Assembly: GCA_050300635.1 (NCBI GenBank)
Contig: JBNKYC010000016.1
Coordinates: 12,337 to 76,336, forward strand
Length of the DNA: 64,000 bases
From: Polyangiaceae bacterium
GTDB taxonomy: Bacteria; Myxococcota_A; Polyangia; Polyangiales; Polyangiaceae
Direction of reading: 5' to 3'
In this document: one piece after another, positions 7,797 to 60,670 of the stretch
Numbering within the stretch: the stretch's first letter is position 1
Layout: each line of letters opens with the position of its first letter
Program-made: the position numbers and the translations under genes
Notes under the pieces: model-generated
The model's input: only the letters and a program-made list of their open reading frames with translations
Databases searched by the model: none
Told to the model about the DNA's origin: nothing

Positions 7797-9130
7797 GCAA
7801 GAAAGTCCGCTGGATTCTACACGCTGATATGGACGCTTTTTACGCCTCCGTCGAGCAGCGCGACCACCCAGAACTACGGGGTAAACCGGTCATTGTCGGT
7901 GCGCGAGGGGCTCGTGGGGTCGTCTCGGCTGCCAGTTATGAAGCACGTGTCTTTGGAGTGCGCTCGGCAATGCCGGGCTTTCAGGCACACAAGTTGTGCC
8001 CCCAAGGTGTCTTTTTGGATGGCGACATGAAGAAGTACGCCAGCGTAAGTCGAAAGATCCACCAAGTCTTTCAGGAGTTCAGCGACGAGATCGAACCCCT
8101 GGCCCTCGACGAGGCCTTCATCGATATCACCGGCAGTCTCGGATTGTTTGGAACCCCAAAGGAACTGGGACGCAGACTCAAAGAACGTGTCATGGAGTCT
8201 GTCGGATTGGTCGTTTCTGTTGGGATCGCGCGCAACAAGCTACTGGCGAAAATGGCTTGTTCCCAAGGAAAGCCCGACGGCCTCTTCGTCCTCGAAGAAC
8301 AAGACATCGAGCCCTTCCTGGCCCCTCAACCCGTGCGTGCCCTCTACGGCGTTGGACCCAAGACAGCGGAACAACTCACGAAAACCGGAATTGTTACTCT
8401 GGGCCAGCTTTCACGGGCCTCCATGCGCTTGCTGCGCCCCATCTTCGGTGATCATGCTCCCGAGATCCGCGCCCGAGCCCAAGGCATCGACCAGCGCCCG
8501 GTGCAAAGCGATCGCGAACCCAAGTCCATCGGCGAAGAAGCCACCTTCGCGGACAACGTAACCGACGACGAACGCATCGTAGCGGCCATCATTTCCCATT
8601 CTGAAATGGTCGCCGCACGAGCTCGGCGGAGCGGGTTTCGGGGACGCACAGTGACTCTAAAGGTCAAGTTGGCTCGTCGGAAGCACTGGGGCGACAAGAC
8701 AGTCGCCAATCACGAACTCTTTCCAGTCGTGAGCCGTCAGAGCAAGCTCCCCGCGCCCACTGTAGATGGGTCAGAAATCAGCCGCGTCGCGCGAGAGCTC
8801 TACGCCAAACTACAGCTCAAAGAACCGGTTCGGCTGGTGGGCGTGACTCTGAGCAGCTTGGAGCGCGAAGAAGCCCCCCGTCAGCTCGATCTGTTTTCGC
8901 TCGGAGCGCCCGCTCCGCCTCGCCCCTTCGCACCGGAAAAGTCGGGAGAGCTCACTTCACGGCAACGACGTACCCGTACCAAGGGCGAACAGCTCGGGGC
9001 CACCCTCGATCAAATCACCGCTCGCTTCGGGAGCGACGCCGTGACGCGTGGCGGGCATAAAGTCGACAAGATTGCGGCGAGCGACAAGCTGAAGCTGGGC
9101 GAGCTCGAAGGGGACGAGGAAACCCCGTAA
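7793..9130 (+). CDS. dinB: DNA polymerase IV (Y-family)
   Basis: ILHADMDAFYASVEQRDHPELRGKPVIVG and LDEAFIDITG. ATGA start/stop overlap with the upstream dipeptidase gene. Confidence 0.95.
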   Translation: MSKKVRWILHADMDAFYASVEQRDHPELRGKPVIVGARGARGVVSAASYEARVFGVRSAMPGFQAHKLCPQGVFLDGDMKKYASVSRKIHQVFQEFSDEIEPLALDEAFIDITGSLGLFGTPKELGRRLKERVMESVGLVVSVGIARNKLLAKMACSQGKPDGLFVLEEQDIEPFLAPQPVRALYGVGPKTAEQLTKTGIVTLGQLSRASMRLLRPIFGDHAPEIRARAQGIDQRPVQSDREPKSIGEEATFADNVTDDERIVAAIISHSEMVAARARRSGFRGRTVTLKVKLARRKHWGDKTVANHELFPVVSRQSKLPAPTVDGSEISRVARELYAKLQLKEPVRLVGVTLSSLEREEAPRQLDLFSLGAPAPPRPFAPEKSGELTSRQRRTRTKGEQLGATLDQITARFGSDAVTRGGHKVDKIAASDKLKLGELEGDEETP

Positions 9131-9183
9131 CGCCTCGGCCCCCCACCATCCTGCGGCACTCGACGATCAGCCGCTAAGAGCAT

Positions 9184-9382
9184 CTAGTGCTGCAACCGTT
9201 TAAATTTGAGCGCTTCTTGCTCTATCAGCGTTGAGAGACGGCTCGGTTTTCAGGAAGGGTCGCGGCACAAATGGGAAGAGAAAAATGCGGAGACAGAGAG
9301 GGCCGAGCGCGGTTGCGAAGCCGACCTCACGTTCTTGGGGAGAGCTTCGCAACCGCTCATTTCTAAGTGGTCGTAGCACTAG
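9184..9382. repeat. 199-bp CTAG-bounded structured repeat, copy A (candidate MITE or ncRNA)
   Basis: 183/199 identical to 56865-57063 in the same orientation. Terminal inverted repeats CTAGTGCTGCAACCG / GGTCGTAGCACTAG. Internal perfect 13-bp hairpin at 9309-9321 / 9344-9356. Confidence 0.85.
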
Positions 9383-11088
9383 TGTACGGATGGCCCGGTC
9401 AAACTGAGCGCCTGCGCCTTTTCTTCCTCTTCGACGGATCGGCGCTGGTCCTCGTGGGCAGCAATCAGACTTCGTAGCTCTTCTCTGGTCACACCGAGAC
9501 GGGCAGCGGTGTTGCGGGCCAGGGATGTGCCGGCGACCCCAGGTCGAAACTGATAGGTAGGACGCTTCTGCGCGTCCAGCTCGACCTGCAGGAAGGTCAG
9601 ACAAGAAGTAGCTTCGAGCGTCTCGCCCTTTCCACCCACGGACTCCGCCTTATCTCTCATGCGCGAAGCGAAATCGAGAAAGTGGGTAGTGATCCAGACT
9701 TGAGCCCCTAGCTCCTGGAGCAGGTCGAGCACCATTTCGAAGATCCGTTCGCCCTCCGAGGGGTTTGTTCCCGAGCACAATTCGTCCATCAGGATAAGGG
9801 AGCGCGCTCCCGACGACTCGAAAACCTGACGGATCCGCATCAGTTCGAGCCCGAGTCTCCCCTCGGCTTGATCCGCCTCTGCGTGCTCAATCATGGAAAG
9901 AAACAGTTGCTCGACCCAATCCAACTGAGCACTTCGGCAGGGAACGGGCAGTCCGGCTTGGTAGAGCAGCTGGCTGATTGCAAGCGATTGCAGAAGCCGT
10001 GTCTTTCCGCCCGAGTTGGGTCCCGTCACGATGACGATGGATTCGTCATCGTCAAGCTCGAGATCACACGGAACAGGAGGACTCTTACTTTGGGCCAGAA
10101 GCCACGGATTGAAGAGTCCTATCAGTACCCGTCCCTGCCCCTGAGAAGCCGAGGGCCGACAGGTATAAAGCCCTGCCCCCCGAGCTTTGTTACGAAAGAA
10201 GGACGAGCGCAGGTAGAATTCGATTTGCTGCATGAGTCCCAAAGCCAAAGCAACTTCGCCCTCGAGTTGACCAAAAACGTCGTCCAAGACTTGACTCATC
10301 ACGTCCTCTTCGCTGAAGCGATATCCTTTGAGAAGCGACACCAGACTTGTCAAAAAGCGAGTGAATGGACCGCGAGGAAAGGCTTTATGCTCGACGTTCG
10401 AAACCCTCACGATTTCGAAGCGTCTCAGAGTCCCATCGTAGCCAGCTTGTAGCCGCGTCTCGAGCACCGACCGACCGTCTTCGAAGTCGAGAAGCTGAAC
10501 GAGCGCTCGATACGAATCCTTTTTTTGGACCTCTTCGACCCAGTCGGCGATGCGACGCAATCCGCTCTCGCTGGTCGCACAGGCCCGAAACAAGGCGTCC
10601 AATGCCTTCTTGTACCCCGCAAGGATATCAATACGGCGACGCACGCCGATGCTGCGCTGGTTAAAGTCGGAACCACACAGGCTATCGCGAAAATCGACCA
10701 GCGCCAGGTAGGCACCCTCGAGCCACTTCAAGCGTTCTGGTTCACTCGATAGTTCATCGTGGATCTCATAGCGGAAATCCACTGAGCTCTTCTGTTTCGG
10801 GGGCGAGGAAAGCACGCGTAGGAAGAAGCGCGACGGAGCGTCCACCGACTTGTTGCGTACTACGACGCGAAAACAGCGTTCAACGAGTTCTTGAAGAAAG
10901 AGATCTTCACCGAACACCTTCGGGTCAAACGAGGTTGCCTCAATGGGAGGCTCGCTCACATGGAGCAAACGATCGCGATCGGCACCTCTAGCGAAACCGA
11001 AGGTCAGAGCCTCTCGCAGGGCCTTGTCCTTTGGGGCATCAGGTAAGAGCAGCGGTGGGTCGTAGAGGATGTCGGGGCCGGATGTCAT
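9379..11088 (-). CDS. MutS-family ATPase paralog (domain V; no obvious mismatch-binding or Smr domain)
   Basis: Walker A IVTGPNSGGKTRLLQSLA and LILMDELCSGTNPSEGE are typical of the MutS ABC ATPase. The ORF is open to 11139, with an ATG at 11088. The stop TAG lies inside the repeat terminus. Confidence 0.75.
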   Translation of the reverse strand: MTSGPDILYDPPLLLPDAPKDKALREALTFGFARGADRDRLLHVSEPPIEATSFDPKVFGEDLFLQELVERCFRVVVRNKSVDAPSRFFLRVLSSPPKQKSSVDFRYEIHDELSSEPERLKWLEGAYLALVDFRDSLCGSDFNQRSIGVRRRIDILAGYKKALDALFRACATSESGLRRIADWVEEVQKKDSYRALVQLLDFEDGRSVLETRLQAGYDGTLRRFEIVRVSNVEHKAFPRGPFTRFLTSLVSLLKGYRFSEEDVMSQVLDDVFGQLEGEVALALGLMQQIEFYLRSSFFRNKARGAGLYTCRPSASQGQGRVLIGLFNPWLLAQSKSPPVPCDLELDDDESIVIVTGPNSGGKTRLLQSLAISQLLYQAGLPVPCRSAQLDWVEQLFLSMIEHAEADQAEGRLGLELMRIRQVFESSGARSLILMDELCSGTNPSEGERIFEMVLDLLQELGAQVWITTHFLDFASRMRDKAESVGGKGETLEATSCLTFLQVELDAQKRPTYQFRPGVAGTSLARNTAARLGVTREELRSLIAAHEDQRRSVEEEEKAQALSLTGPSVH

Positions 11089-11246
11089 ATAATGCTTTGC
11101 CGAACTGTGTGGAGGAAAGGTCCTGAAGAATAAGGCCATATGGGCCGAGCTGCTCTATCCAACCGACAACTCAATTGCGCAAAAGTTCCTCAGCTCTGAC
11201 CTCTAACCTACCGCTTGACACCCGCGACCAGACGACAGGCCTCCTG

Positions 11247-53904: not shown

Positions 53905-55833
53905 TTACTTGTAACTACGTTGTGAGGGTTTGACGTACTCGAAGTTTAGCGGTTCCTTATTGAGCGTCGGCTGGGACACATCACCCGAAAACTCCCACGC
54001 TGATACGAATTGGAAGTTCTCGTCATCACGCTTGGCCTCACCTTCCTCGGTTTGAGACTCCTGGCGAAAGTGACCGCCACAGGACTCAGCACGAGACAAC
54101 GCGTCGCGACACATGAGCTCGCCGAGCTCCAGAAAATCAGCTACGCGACCAGCCTTCTCGAGACTGACGTTGAGCTCGTCGCCATTGCCGAGCACGCGCA
54201 GATCCTTCCAGAACTGCTCGCGCAGCTGGGGGATCTTCTGAAGGGCGGTCTCCAAACCTTCTTTGGTTCGGGCCATGCCACAGTGCTCCCACATAATCTG
54301 GCCGAGTTCGCGATGGAAGGAATCGGGGCTACGGGAGCCTTTGATGTCGAGAAACTTCTGCATCCGGGCTTTGACCTCTTCGACCGCAGCAACGGCTTCC
54401 GGATGGTTTTCGTCGACGGCCGCTTTGGGTGCCTGGGCCAGGTAGTTGGCCACCGTATAGGGCAAAACAAAGTAACCATCCGCGAGCCCCTGCATGAGGG
54501 CCGACGCACCCAGACGGTTTGCTCCGTGGTCCGAGAAGTTAGCTTCACCGCCGACAAACATACCAGGGATGGTGCTCTCCAAATTGTAGTCCACCCACAG
54601 GCCGCCCATGGTGTAGTGGATAGCGGGATAGATACGCATCGGCGTCTCGTAGGGATCTTCCCCCGTGATGCGCTCATACATTTCGAAGAGGTTCCCGTAA
54701 CGTTCTTCCACGGCTTTGCGACCCAGACGCTGCACCGCGTCTCCGAAATCCAGATAGACACCTCGGCGCTGCCCCCCAACTTTGGGCCCCACCCCGAGCC
54801 CCTGATCGCACATATCCTTAGCTCGACGCGAGGCGATATCGCGAGGAACCAAGTTGCCGAAGCTGGGGTAGATGCGTTCGAGGTAGTAGTCGCGGTCCGC
54901 CTCAGGGATGGTGGAAGGATCCTTTTCGCAATCCTCGGCCTTCTTAGGGACCCAAACGCGTCCGTCGTTGCGAAGGGACTCGCTCATCAGAGTGAGTTTC
55001 GACTGACTTTCTCCGCTTACAGGAATGCAAGTGGGGTGGATCTGCGTGTAACAAGGGTTCGCGAAGAACGCCCCCTTGCGATGGGCCCGCCAGGTCGCCG
55101 TAGCGTTGCATCCCATGGCATTCGTCGAAAGAAAGAACACGTTGCCGTAGCCGCCTGTGCAGAGCACGACAACATCAGCCATGTGAGCCTCAATCTTTCC
55201 ACTCACCATATCTCGCGTCACGATGCCGCGCGCCCGGCCCTCGACCTTGATGAGCTCGAGCATTTCGGTGCGCGGGAACATCTTCACCGTTCCGGCATCC
55301 ATTTGCTTACTGAGGGCCTGATAGGCGCCGAGAAGCAGCTGTTGCCCCGTTTGACCGCGAGCGTAGAAGGTACGCGACACCTGAGCGCCGCCGAAGGACC
55401 GGTTAGCCAGGTTGCCACCGTATTCACGAGCGAAAGGCACCCCTTGAGCAACACATTGGTCGATAATGTTTACGCTCACTTCGGCCAGGCGATAGACGTT
55501 GTCCTCGCGCGCGCGGAAGTCGCCACCTTTGACCGTGTCGTAGAACAGCCGATAGACGCTGTCGCCGTCGTTCTGGTAGTTCTTGGCGGCATTAATACCG
55601 CCCTGGGCCGCGATACTGTGCGCTCGCCGAGGGCTGTCCTGGTAGCAGAATGCCTTCACATTGTAGCCTTGCTCTCCGAGCGTTGCCGCCAATGCGCCAC
55701 CGGCAAGGCCAGTACCAACGACAATGACTTGATGCTTGCGGCGGTTAGCTGGGTTGACCAGCTTCATGTTGAACTTGTGACGAGACCAGCGCGTCTCGAT
55801 GGGACCCTCGGGTGCTTTTGACTTGAGTTCCAT
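53905..55833 (-). CDS. sdhA: succinate dehydrogenase/fumarate reductase flavoprotein subunit
   Basis: [31 protein letters not shown] and HYTMGG. Confidence 0.95.
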
Positions 55834-55891: not shown

Positions 55892-56569
55892 TCAGTGGTG
55901 CACGATCCCCATCAGCACCGACAAGGGCAGAATGATGTTGCCAACCGTCACGACCATCGCCAGAAACTGTGCGATGCCCTTGACCGTCTCGTTACGCAAA
56001 GGATTGTTCAAACCCAAGGTCTGAAACAGGCTGTAAGAGCCGTGGTAGAGATGTAGGCCGAGCGAAATCATCGCAGCGATGTAGAGAGCAACCACCCAAG
56101 GGATAGAAAACCCATTAACGAAGTTGCTGTAGGCCGCCGAGTACGGCTGATGGTCGTAAGCCCCCATAGCCACTCCAGGGAAGGTAAAGTGGGCCAAGTG
56201 GTAAAGAATAAAGAAGAGCAAACTCAGCCCGCTGAACTTCATCGTGAGCGCAGCAAAGGTGGTGCGATCATTCTTCTTGACCCGATACCCCACCGGGCGA
56301 GCGGCCGCGGAGCGCGCGACCAACTGCATCGCCATCACGATGTGAAGGAGGACCGCTGCGAGCAGAACCAAGCGAGCCAAGATCAAGAACTTGCCTCCCA
56401 AGAGATCATGTATCCCGACGGCATACGAGTTGAAGGCTTCTGGTCCTAAGAAGATCTGCAGGTTGCCTGCCATGTGCCCCAGAACGAAGCCAAACAGAAC
56501 TAGGCCCGATAGGGCCATCACAATCTTCTTGCCAATGGTGGTGTCGATGAAACTTAACGCCTGGTTCAT
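55892..56569 (-). CDS. sdhC: succinate dehydrogenase cytochrome b subunit (b558-type, 5 TM)
   Basis: 225-aa polytopic protein with conserved His in its TM helices, directly upstream of sdhA. Confidence 0.8.
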   Translation of the reverse strand: MNQALSFIDTTIGKKIVMALSGLVLFGFVLGHMAGNLQIFLGPEAFNSYAVGIHDLLGGKFLILARLVLLAAVLLHIVMAMQLVARSAAARPVGYRVKKNDRTTFAALTMKFSGLSLLFFILYHLAHFTFPGVAMGAYDHQPYSAAYSNFVNGFSIPWVVALYIAAMISLGLHLYHGSYSLFQTLGLNNPLRNETVKGIAQFLAMVVTVGNIILPLSVLMGIVHH

Positions 56570-56864: not shown

Positions 56865-57063
56865 CTAGTGCTGCGACCGTTTAAATTCGAGGGCTTCTTG
56901 GTCTGTCAGCGTTGAGAGCCGGCTCGGTGTTCAGGAAGGGTCGCGGCACAAATGGGACGAGAAAAGTGCGGAGACCGAGAAGGGCGAGCGCGGTTTCGAA
57001 GCCGACCTCACTATCTTGGGGAGAGCTTCGAAACCGCTCATTTCTAAGTGGTCGTAGCACTAG
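56865..57063. repeat. 199-bp CTAG-bounded structured repeat, copy B
   Basis: Same length and orientation as 9184-9382, with 16 substitutions and no indels. Internal hairpin at 56990-57002 / 57025-57037. Confidence 0.85.
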
Positions 57064-58628
57064 GGGCACCCTGCCCCTGTGCAGTTGCAAGTCGAATTCG
57101 TCGGACACGCCGAGCACGTCGCCCCCTCGTCGCATTCCATAGTGAAGGTCGAGGCCTTGTCGGACTCCGCAGTAAAGGTGCAGTCTGCGCCTTTTTCGCA
57201 GTGAACCACGCCAATGTCCTGCTGGTATTGCTCCGAGATGATTTCACAAGTGGACCCGGCCTCGCAATTGATGACCGCGTCGACGTCCCCACCTGGCCCC
57301 ACAGCAAAAGAGTAGGAGCAGTCGCCGTCCTTGGCGCAGTTGAAGACGCCGGAAATGTCACCCTCCCACGCGTTGGTCGACGAAAGGTTGCAGTTAGAGT
57401 CCGGCTTGCAATCGACTTCGCAAAGCGCGCCCCCACCGGCGCAGTCGATGTTGCAGGTTGCCCCGGCGTTGCAGGACAGATCGGTGCAGTCCTCCTTCCA
57501 ACTGCACGCCATGTCGCACTCCACCGTCGTGCCACACTGCGCTCCTGAACACTCGGCGCTGTTGTTACAATCGGCAGACATCCCCTCGCCCAGGCACTTG
57601 GCCTGGTGATCCAAATCGCACAGACTACACAAGCTCAAGTCGTAGCGACAGTCACTACCGCAGGTATCGATGACGGAATCATCGCCGGTAAAACCAACGT
57701 CTTCGCAGGTCAAACCACCAGGCACGGTCCCCTCGCATTGTTCATCCCCGTTTTTTACCCCGTCGCCGCAGTACTCACAGGTGGACTCATCCCAGGTGGC
57801 ATCAAGGCCACAGCTAGCAACTCCCCCCGTGTAGTCCTCGGCAGGGTCCAAAATATCTCGGCAGTCAATGGTGACGTCGTAAGCCATCGGATCGCATTCG
57901 ATACAGTCAACGGTGTTCCACAGAGTCCCGCCGTCGCAAAACACGTCACCGACCGGCCGGGCACCCATCGTCGCCGTCGAGCAGCTGGGCGGAGTCACGT
58001 CCCCATCACAAAGAGCACACTCAGACCAATCGTAGCTACCTTCAGCGCTACAACTCGCCATTCCTCCGCGATTGTCCGTGGGGTTCATCGGCGAGTCGCA
58101 ATCCGCCGCCGGACCGCTTTCGTCACAAGCCGAACAAACGTCCATGGGTTCTTCAACCCATCCCAACCCTTTTTCGTCGCAGACGACCTTGCCATCTGGT
58201 GTCGCCTGATCGAGCAGAGCGCAAGATACTTCTTCGTCGGGGGTACAGAACATACACCCCGAAAGGTCCCAACCGTCCCCCTCGCACACAGCCATGCCGT
58301 TGGGGTATTCGTCGGAATGCTCGGAACAGGCCTCTTCTGCGCCCTTCTCGCATACGGGAGGGGCGCCTCCGTCGTTGCTTCCACCCGAGCTGCTCGCTCC
58401 CCCAGGATCGGTTTTACCCCCACCCGATGCGTTGGATGCTCCACCGGAGCTCCCGCTCACACCTCCCGACGCGGTCGAAACGCGCCCCCCCGAACCGTCA
58501 CCGTCCCCGGAAGAGTCGGAGCCGCCGCTCCCTCCCCCGTTTCCGGTCGATTCGACTTGGGCACAAGAAAAAGTGAGGGCACCAGATACGGCAAAAACGA
58601 CGCCCCAGCGGGCGAATTGATGAGTCAA
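57060..58628 (-). CDS. secreted cysteine-rich repeat lipoprotein (Myxococcus-type Cys-rich repeats)
   Basis: Lipobox LTFSC, a Gly/Ser-rich linker and dozens of Cys, including CGDGVKNGDEQCEG. A TTG at 58628 follows a GGAG Shine-Dalgarno. The ORF is open to 58700. The stop TAG lies inside the repeat terminus. Confidence 0.7.
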   Translation of the reverse strand: MTHQFARWGVVFAVSGALTFSCAQVESTGNGGGSGGSDSSGDGDGSGGRVSTASGGVSGSSGGASNASGGGKTDPGGASSSGGSNDGGAPPVCEKGAEEACSEHSDEYPNGMAVCEGDGWDLSGCMFCTPDEEVSCALLDQATPDGKVVCDEKGLGWVEEPMDVCSACDESGPAADCDSPMNPTDNRGGMASCSAEGSYDWSECALCDGDVTPPSCSTATMGARPVGDVFCDGGTLWNTVDCIECDPMAYDVTIDCRDILDPAEDYTGGVASCGLDATWDESTCEYCGDGVKNGDEQCEGTVPGGLTCEDVGFTGDDSVIDTCGSDCRYDLSLCSLCDLDHQAKCLGEGMSADCNNSAECSGAQCGTTVECDMACSWKEDCTDLSCNAGATCNIDCAGGGALCEVDCKPDSNCNLSSTNAWEGDISGVFNCAKDGDCSYSFAVGPGGDVDAVINCEAGSTCEIISEQYQQDIGVVHCEKGADCTFTAESDKASTFTMECDEGATCSACPTNSTCNCTGAGCP

Positions 58629-58783
58629 GTTGGTTTCTCCAAGAAAGTGGTTACCGAAGAATAATCTAGCGAGGCTGTTGTAACAACAACGCGTTGCCAC
58701 GATTCTGTAGAAAACCTGCCCCTTCTTGACTCACTCGCGGGCTCAGCGCGCAGCACCCAAGCTTCAGCCCCTAAAATAGCTCA

Positions 58784-60580: not shown

Positions 60581-60664
60581 GCCGAAGTGGCGGAATTGGC
60601 AGACGCAGCGGATTCAAAATCCGCCGCCCTTAAAAGCGTGTCGGTTCGAGTCCGACCTTCGGCA
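60581..60664 (+). tRNA. tRNA-Leu (anticodon CAA), type II with long variable arm
   Basis: Acceptor stem GCCGAAG/CTTCGGC, anticodon stem-loop GCGGA-TTCAAAA-TCCGC and T-arm GTCGG-TTCGAGT-CCGAC. No CCA is encoded. Confidence 0.9.
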
Positions 60665-60670
60665 CTGCCT

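Follow-up and report, generated by a model that had tools for sequence, protein, structure and literature searches.

A CTAG-flanked 199-bp repeat of an uncultured myxobacterium, very probably a miniature inverted-repeat transposable element

A stretch of 64,000 nucleotides from a Polyangiaceae bacterium (assembly GCA_050300635.1, contig JBNKYC010000016.1), called here the window, contains the same 199-bp sequence twice, each time bounded by CTAG. An earlier note on this DNA offered two readings of the repeat, a structured non-coding RNA (ncRNA) or a miniature inverted-repeat transposable element (MITE), which raises the question of what this element is. Our analysis indicates that it is very probably a MITE, namely a non-coding and non-autonomous DNA transposon that inserts at CTAG in an uncultured myxobacterium. 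The family is new but its kind is known, and no RNA gene is demonstrated. The MITE reading of the earlier note is strongly supported by dispersed copies with unrelated flanks from at least three sources, by a CTTG duplication, by a dimer, by a 104-bp variant, and by assemblies that break inside the repeat.

Compared base by base together with 50 bp of flanking sequence, the two copies of the window (A and B) are 199 bp each, lie on one strand and differ by 16 substitutions without any indel, the result that had been obtained earlier by hand. The differences fall at element positions 11, 24, 28, 37, 41, 55, 65, 94, 102, 112, 117, 120, 132, 148, 149, and 167. Five of the 16 substitutions are transitions, an unusually transversion-rich pattern for neutral divergence. 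The ends were described as invariant, and they are, except that the 3' invariant stretch is of 32 nt (168-199) and not of 26. The boundaries also stand as described, since the 50-bp flanks of A and B do not align and similarity stops at the CTAG of either end. A search with 39 nt of the element, allowing up to three mismatches, matched the window at A and B only, with no match in 100 shuffles, and the element is the sole repeat family of at least 40 nt within the 64 kb.

9184-9382, plus strand: copy A, a 191-bp core (9188-9378) with CTAG on each side; nhmmer with the family profile, E 1.6e-69
56865-57063, plus strand: copy B, a 191-bp core (56869-57059) with flanking CTAGs; 92.0% identity to A
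9184-9187, no strand: left CTAG of copy A, taken to be one of the two halves of a target-site duplication of 4 bp
9379-9382, no strand: right CTAG of copy A, read as the other half; its CTA serves on the minus strand as the TAG stop of the MutS-related gene
56865-56868, no strand: left CTAG of copy B, from the flank comparison
57060-57063, no strand: right CTAG of copy B; its CTA serves on the minus strand as the TAG stop of the Cys-rich protein gene

Seven more copies were recovered outside the window, by several routes. A pattern scan of metagenomes gave one real copy, in the contig L003 (JGI Ga0316575_10020737), which starts at element position 65, and two other matches (L002 and L004). A look-up of the neighboring DinB gave a Logan contig identical to the window, which repeats copy A and ends at element position 71. 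Protein searches with the minus-strand frames gave only P0001 at first, and a later exhaustive search of representatives gave P0122-P0124, leading to the contigs L008-L010. In total, the contigs of open reading frames (ORFs) running through copies provided five more loci (L005, two in L009, L010, and L008). The copy of L005 is truncated after element position 159, L009 carries one full copy (L009a) and one 104-bp variant (L009b), and L010 carries one full copy. L005, L009, and L010 all belong to NCBI GCA_050300095.1, which has four loci on three contigs, to which the window adds two copies. L008 (ENA ERZ23398518), with a tandem pair, comes from a different genome of 63.6% GC. The recovered set, window included, thus comprises six full and three partial copies, a small sample, with identities of 92-96% inside the main subfamily and of about 82% between it and the L008 subfamily. 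Two independent assemblies (Logan and JGI) break inside the repeat, as expected of a multi-copy sequence. According to the earlier note, a lack of additional copies and of covariation beyond these two would be consistent with a simple segmental duplication; further copies do exist, and they point to mobility and not to an RNA gene.

The flanks are CTAG at six loci. At L010, they read ggca-CTTG-TGCTGCGACC...GGTCGCAGCA-CTTG-tgcc, a direct and non-palindromic repeat. If these four bases belonged to an inverted repeat or a helix, a variant would read CTTG...CAAG, and the flanks are therefore a target-site duplication. The rough probability of two independent matching flank mutations in L010 is about 0.002. 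The mobile core is of 191 bp (TGCTGCGACC...GGTCGTAGCA), with the tips TG...CA. In L008, the two copies lie head to tail with a period of 195 bp and one common CTAG, as expected if a second copy had used the CTAG beside the first as its target. Another insertion is nested in the copy of L003, where an insertion sequence (IS) of the IS701 family (137-1497, 1361 bp), encoding a 404-aa transposase that scores 322 bits against a cutoff of 150, has the inverted ends CACTACYTGAT and CTAG on both sides, and sits exactly in the terminal CTAG of the MITE copy. This lineage thus has active CTAG-targeting transposition.

CTAG-related IS include the IS5 group and the IS701 family (4-bp YTAR/CTAG), IS630 (TA within CTAG), and IS481/IS1002 (NCTAGN). 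Like the IS5 group, IS701, and IS630, the element targets CTAG, and its flanks fit a duplication of 4 bp (CTAG) or of 2 bp within CTAG equally well. A 6-bp NCTAGN duplication, as in IS481/IS1002, is excluded, since the bases just outside CTAG on the left are not those on the right. Although an IS701-family IS with a CTAG duplication is found in the same lineage, its ends are unlike the TGCTGCGACC of the element, and mobilization by the IS of L003 was rejected for this reason.

The ends of the core are imperfect terminal inverted repeats of about 15-19 bp. They have an 11-bp core, GTGCTRCGACC, found at both ends of all full copies, and in L010 the first ten core bases (TGCTGCGACC) form a perfect inverted repeat. 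When G.T is allowed, 18-19 of the 19 positions of the terminal arms pair. The terminal helix of the earlier note (1-19 with 181-199, three G.T pairs, and an A11.C189 mismatch in copy A that is G-C in copy B) was correctly described and is simply this pair of terminal inverted repeats. The same end motif recurs inside every full copy, and the element also carries an internal hairpin.

9188-9202 (element 5-19), plus strand: left terminal inverted repeat of copy A; left-end core GTGCTGCRACC at 4-14
9364-9378 (element 181-195), minus strand: right terminal inverted repeat of copy A; core GTGCTACGACC on the minus strand, at 186-196
9258-9268 (element 75-85), minus strand: internal inverted end motif of copy A, GTGCCGCGACC, with one mismatch to the left end motif
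56939-56949, minus strand: internal inverted end motif of copy B, from the motif search
9285-9295 (element 102-112), plus strand: weaker internal forward motif of copy A, GTGCGGAGACA in A and GTGCGGAGACC in B
56966-56976, plus strand: internal forward end-like motif of copy B, GTGCGGAGACC
9309-9356 (element 126-173), plus strand: internal hairpin of copy A, a 13-bp stem, an internal loop, a 4-5-bp extension, and a 6-nt loop, followed by TCATTTCT
56990-57037, plus strand: internal hairpin of copy B, with the T132-A167 version of the pair

The inverted motif at 75-85 is present in all six full copies and invariant across the eight aligned copies; we read it as a putative relic of the right end of a first unit or as a putative inner transposase-binding site. 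The forward motif at 102-112 has two mismatches in B and L009a. The segment aligns with the true left end of the 104-bp variant (L009 12332-12435), and the motif may be a relic of the left end of a second unit. For the two interior matches of copy B, shuffling gave a P of 0.003. The 104-bp variant agrees with the full element in its left and right ends and has CTAG flanks, and over its whole length it aligns with element positions ~99-199 (z = 26). Because the end motif recurs internally and the variant matches the right half, the 199-mer probably arose when two ~100-bp units fused, their inner ends having since decayed. The right unit, with the hairpin and the right end, would then also exist alone as the 104-bp element, and the decayed inner ends of the fused units would persist at 75-85 and 102-112.

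Further properties correspond to what defines a MITE. With 199 bp, and 104 bp for the variant, the element is below the size of about 600 bp used for such elements, and it combines terminal inverted repeats, a target-site duplication, and multiple dispersed copies with the lack of a transposase or of any conserved coding capacity. Concerning the latter, 14 of the 16 substitutions between A and B change an amino acid in the longest open frame (a count made by eye on the frame translations), and the copies do not share a conserved start codon. The six frames of the element gave no Pfam or NCBIfam match at E<=10, and a search with all frames of all copies concatenated gave no protein match. Since almost every substitution is non-synonymous and no start codon is conserved, the reading as a small protein was rejected.

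TG...CA tips and a short duplication of fixed length are typical of DDE transposition. We propose that a DDE-type transposase, supplied in trans by a full-length IS, would recognize the end motif, and that the element would insert into CTAG and duplicate it on both sides. Alternatively, an IS630-like duplication of two bases inside CTAG would fit equally. Insertions that survive would sit at gene ends, where the duplication would leave the TAG stop of the neighbor intact.

The surroundings of the copies can be compared with this proposal. The right CTAG of both A and B supplies the TAG stop of the abutting minus-strand gene (the ORFs end at 9379 and 57060). The gene next to A encodes a MutS-related protein (9379-11139, minus strand) with a Pfam MutS_V match, and the gene next to B encodes a Cys-rich protein (57060-58700, minus strand). 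The variant L009b also abuts a stop codon, and the genes downstream of L005 and L009a have their called start codons 5-11 nt beyond the copies. CTAG is about three-fold under-represented in the 64-kb window, with 72 sites observed against 233 expected from base composition. A crude gene call puts 25 of the 72 sites in the ~8% of non-coding sequence or at stop codons, with eight overlapping TAG stops. The copies A, B, and L009b abut stop codons because CTAG is rare and enriched outside coding sequence and at TAG stops, and this distribution may also explain the position of L005 and L009a near start codons. The neighbor keeps its TAG stop because the target is duplicated. An orientation bias relative to upstream genes, apparent in most copies, was discarded since four loci were found through minus-strand ORFs and the unbiased L009b is opposite.

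Some other features of these surroundings were noted. Among the crudely called genes of the window, 18 of 53 end in TAG. The Cys-rich protein has 546 residues, a Gly/Ser-rich N-terminal region, and no Pfam match, and it is predicted to be secreted; its gene is directly upstream of sdhC and sdhA (55892-56569 and 53905-55833), with copy B in between. In two called proteins of GCA_050300095.1, P0122 (L009 10001-10912) and P0123 (L010 10001-10798), ~65 N-terminal residues are translated through a MITE copy, which is possible because these copies have GAA where the window copies have a TAA stop. These N-terminal extensions are likely gene-calling artifacts, and the real DUF2490 protein of P0122 probably starts at the methionine of MVSPLV..., 5 nt beyond the element.

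The locus of copy A was also compared with that of relatives. The orthologous dinB/mutS-related locus of four contigs from relatives (L007, L011, L012, and L013) does not contain the element. In these contigs, dinB and the mutS-related gene run tail to tail with an overlap of 38-56 nt (L007 5640-5677, L011 2113-2168, and L012 4652-4689), and in the window, where the region 9130-9440 was compared, they are 248 bp apart. The MutS-related protein of the window has an extra C-terminal tail of 17 residues (SVEEEEKAQALSLTGPSVH) ending at the TAG of the element flank. The empty orthologous loci would be supportive of mobility rather than decisive.

Several points weigh against the reading of this repeat as a MITE. 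No autonomous partner was found: tblastn detected no transposase in the window, none is called in L005 or L008-L010, and the IS701-like element of L003, with its unrelated ends, is the only transposase seen near a copy. No same-species empty site with a single CTAG was found among the compared loci, and the MutS-related proteins of the relatives are only 64-70% identical to that of the window, whose locus is remodeled. The copies diverge by 4-8%, which gives no sign of recent activity, and the sample is orientation-biased by its discovery through minus-strand ORFs. Three further points concern structure. The exchange of the 132/167 pair is a compensatory double transversion in a perfect stem (p about 0.01-0.03, a rough value). 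The substitutions between A and B keep the minus-strand fold better than random ones, as only 0.3-0.7% of simulations did as well. Lastly, fixed differences between the subfamilies number 3/76 in the hairpin and right end and 25/124 elsewhere (Fisher 0.0013), the internal hairpin being the most conserved part of the element between subfamilies and the right-hand unit differing by 4% against 20% elsewhere.

These structural points are also those that favor an ncRNA gene family, in which the copies would be paralogous genes for a 199-nt plus-strand transcript with a closing helix and a long hairpin. We consider this very unlikely. The hairpin itself is as the earlier note described it, with a perfect 13-bp stem (126-138 with 161-173), an extension via CCTC/GGGG, a G132-C167 pair of copy A that is T-A in copy B, and the substitutions 148 and 149 in its apical loop. 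The fold energies compared with shuffles are consistent with a structured RNA (z of -4.7 for A and -5.05 for B on the plus strand), but the minus strand of A is equally good (z of -5.5), and both-strand values of this kind are what any set of inverted repeats gives. The preservation of the fold by the A/B substitutions is not clear on the plus strand, where 27-42% of simulations did as well with a fixed structure and 0.7% and 15% with refolding.

The covariation noted earlier stands in part. The 132/167 double change is real, and a second double-sided change was found in the terminal arms of L008a, but the covariation is weak: two double-sided changes in 37 pairs over eight sequences, a number too small for R-scape-type power, were equaled in 24 of 500 shuffles, related sequences inflating the measure. 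Besides, the G-C pair is found in A only and T-A in six other copies, corresponding to one event in one copy. Perfect DNA palindromes can gain concerted double changes by template switching at quasi-palindromes, and the double changes could have arisen in this way. The four wobble pairs, all G.T on the plus strand, also favor an RNA (sign test p about 0.06-0.12), but the strand read through from neighboring genes is mostly the minus strand, on which they are A.C mismatches, although this orientation count is biased by the discovery route.

Other observations argue more directly against an RNA gene. The CTTG flanks of L010 break two pairs of the putative terminal helix and yet form a direct repeat, the dimer of L008 has only one common CTAG, and the 104-bp variant is without half of the RNA and has two of the 13 stem pairs broken without compensation. 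When RNAalifold is given the eight sequences, the terminal helix drops out of the prediction and the left end is paired with the interior block 76-86, because the end motif is repeated inside the element. No sigma-70-like promoter or canonical intrinsic terminator was found at either copy. Rfam 15 gave no match at gathering in the window except a tRNA, and at E<=10 the region 9100-9460 gave three chance-level matches of 11-16 bits against gathering scores of 40-100, so that the element has no likeness to Rfam families. The earlier note was thus right that no known RNA family is recognizable, and its ncRNA reading is the one that lost ground. A retron msr/msd was rejected since no reverse transcriptase is nearby, and an integron attC site because the expected core sites are lacking, as judged by eye. 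The tRNA, tRNA-Leu (CAA) at 60581-60665 on the plus strand, is the only Rfam or ARAGORN match in the window.

If the element is a MITE, what would the hairpin be? After it on the plus strand comes TCATTTCT, 8 nt ahead of the right end, which gives a U-rich UCAUUUCU tail. We read the hairpin as a module of the right unit that has been conserved, and our best guess is that it represents either a relic or a working stem-loop of the parent element, for example a terminator just inside the right end. That the right unit (hairpin, U-rich tail, and right end) is a working structure spread by the MITE, and not baggage, is suggested by the low divergence between subfamilies, by its survival intact in the 104-bp variant, and by one clean compensatory change, although we regard it as unlikely, with a small but real chance. 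If true, the right unit could be a plus-strand transcription terminator or a stabilizer of mRNA 3' ends at gene ends, or alternatively its hairpin could control the transposition of the element itself.

An additional possibility is a small mobile repeat that is moved without a classical DDE transposase, being REP/RAYT-like, IS200/IS605-like (PATE), or a Haloquadratum-type unexplained repeat. This would agree with the lack of a partner transposase with matching ends and with the strong subterminal hairpin, as hairpins are what single-strand transposases recognize. The TG...CA tips and the short fixed duplication are typical of DDE enzymes. Transposase-free repeats with inverted ends whose mobilization is unknown have been reported (PMC3119063), but REP and PATE elements have subterminal palindromes and neither terminal inverted repeats nor target duplications (PMC3119063), while the element has both of the latter. 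We consider such a mode of mobilization very unlikely. Finally, a non-mobile repeat spread by segmental duplication or gene conversion, with CTAG ends by coincidence, could account for just two copies in the same orientation in the 64-kb window, but it is extremely unlikely given at least seven insertion loci with unrelated flanks from three or more sources, boundaries identical to the base in every copy, direct-repeat flanks, the dimer, the short variant, and two assemblies broken inside the repeat.

The MITE can be compared with known ones, such as Correia/NEMIS of Neisseria, RUP of Streptococcus pneumoniae, and HqIRS of Haloquadratum (PMC3119063). It is like them in being non-coding and of 100-200 bp, in its terminal inverted repeats, short target duplication, and size variants with the same ends, in its many intergenic copies that often adjoin genes and insert into one another, and in transcripts that would fold into hairpins. 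Correia and RUP duplicate TA, whereas the flank here is CTAG, or TA/TT within it, and unlike these MITEs the 199-bp form would be a composite of two units with relic inner ends.

In sequence, the element resembles nothing in the plasmid, phage, viral, and GTDB-representative collections. Exact-pattern scans of GTDB representative genomes with the 3' 19-mer and a central 20-mer gave no true copy, the sole match (L006) being a chance match in an actinobacterial coding region. Blastn gave no match to the element in plasmid and phage collections, two scans of viral contigs gave nothing, and the family profile found no other copy in roughly 200 kb of sequence examined. Among the metagenome matches, L004 looks like a chance match. 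L002 (JGI Ga0102934_1000317, 52.6% GC) has, at 10534-10675, an exact 19-nt match to the right end (10657-10675) and, about 120 nt upstream, 10 nt that match the left-end motif (AGTGCTGCGA) and are correctly inverted, with neither a CTAG on the left nor any similarity in the interior; this site may be a distant relative or a chance match. By the flanking proteins, the window belongs to an uncultured Myxococcota lineage near Polyangia. For the MutS-related protein, the best homolog other than itself is 70% identical, and the named matches, at 42-44%, are from Sorangium, Minicystis, and Polyangiaceae.

The finding opens no long-standing question and will not surprise specialists. It matters for annotation, as the element sits on stop and start codons and has likely led to false N-terminal extensions of P0122 and P0123 in a public assembly, and for sequencing, as it breaks short-read assemblies of a poorly sampled Polyangia-like myxobacterial lineage. 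For the biology of such elements, it provides an example of a CTAG-targeting MITE that would keep the TAG stops of its neighbors through target duplication, and of dimers and composites that may form through insertion into its own flanking CTAG.

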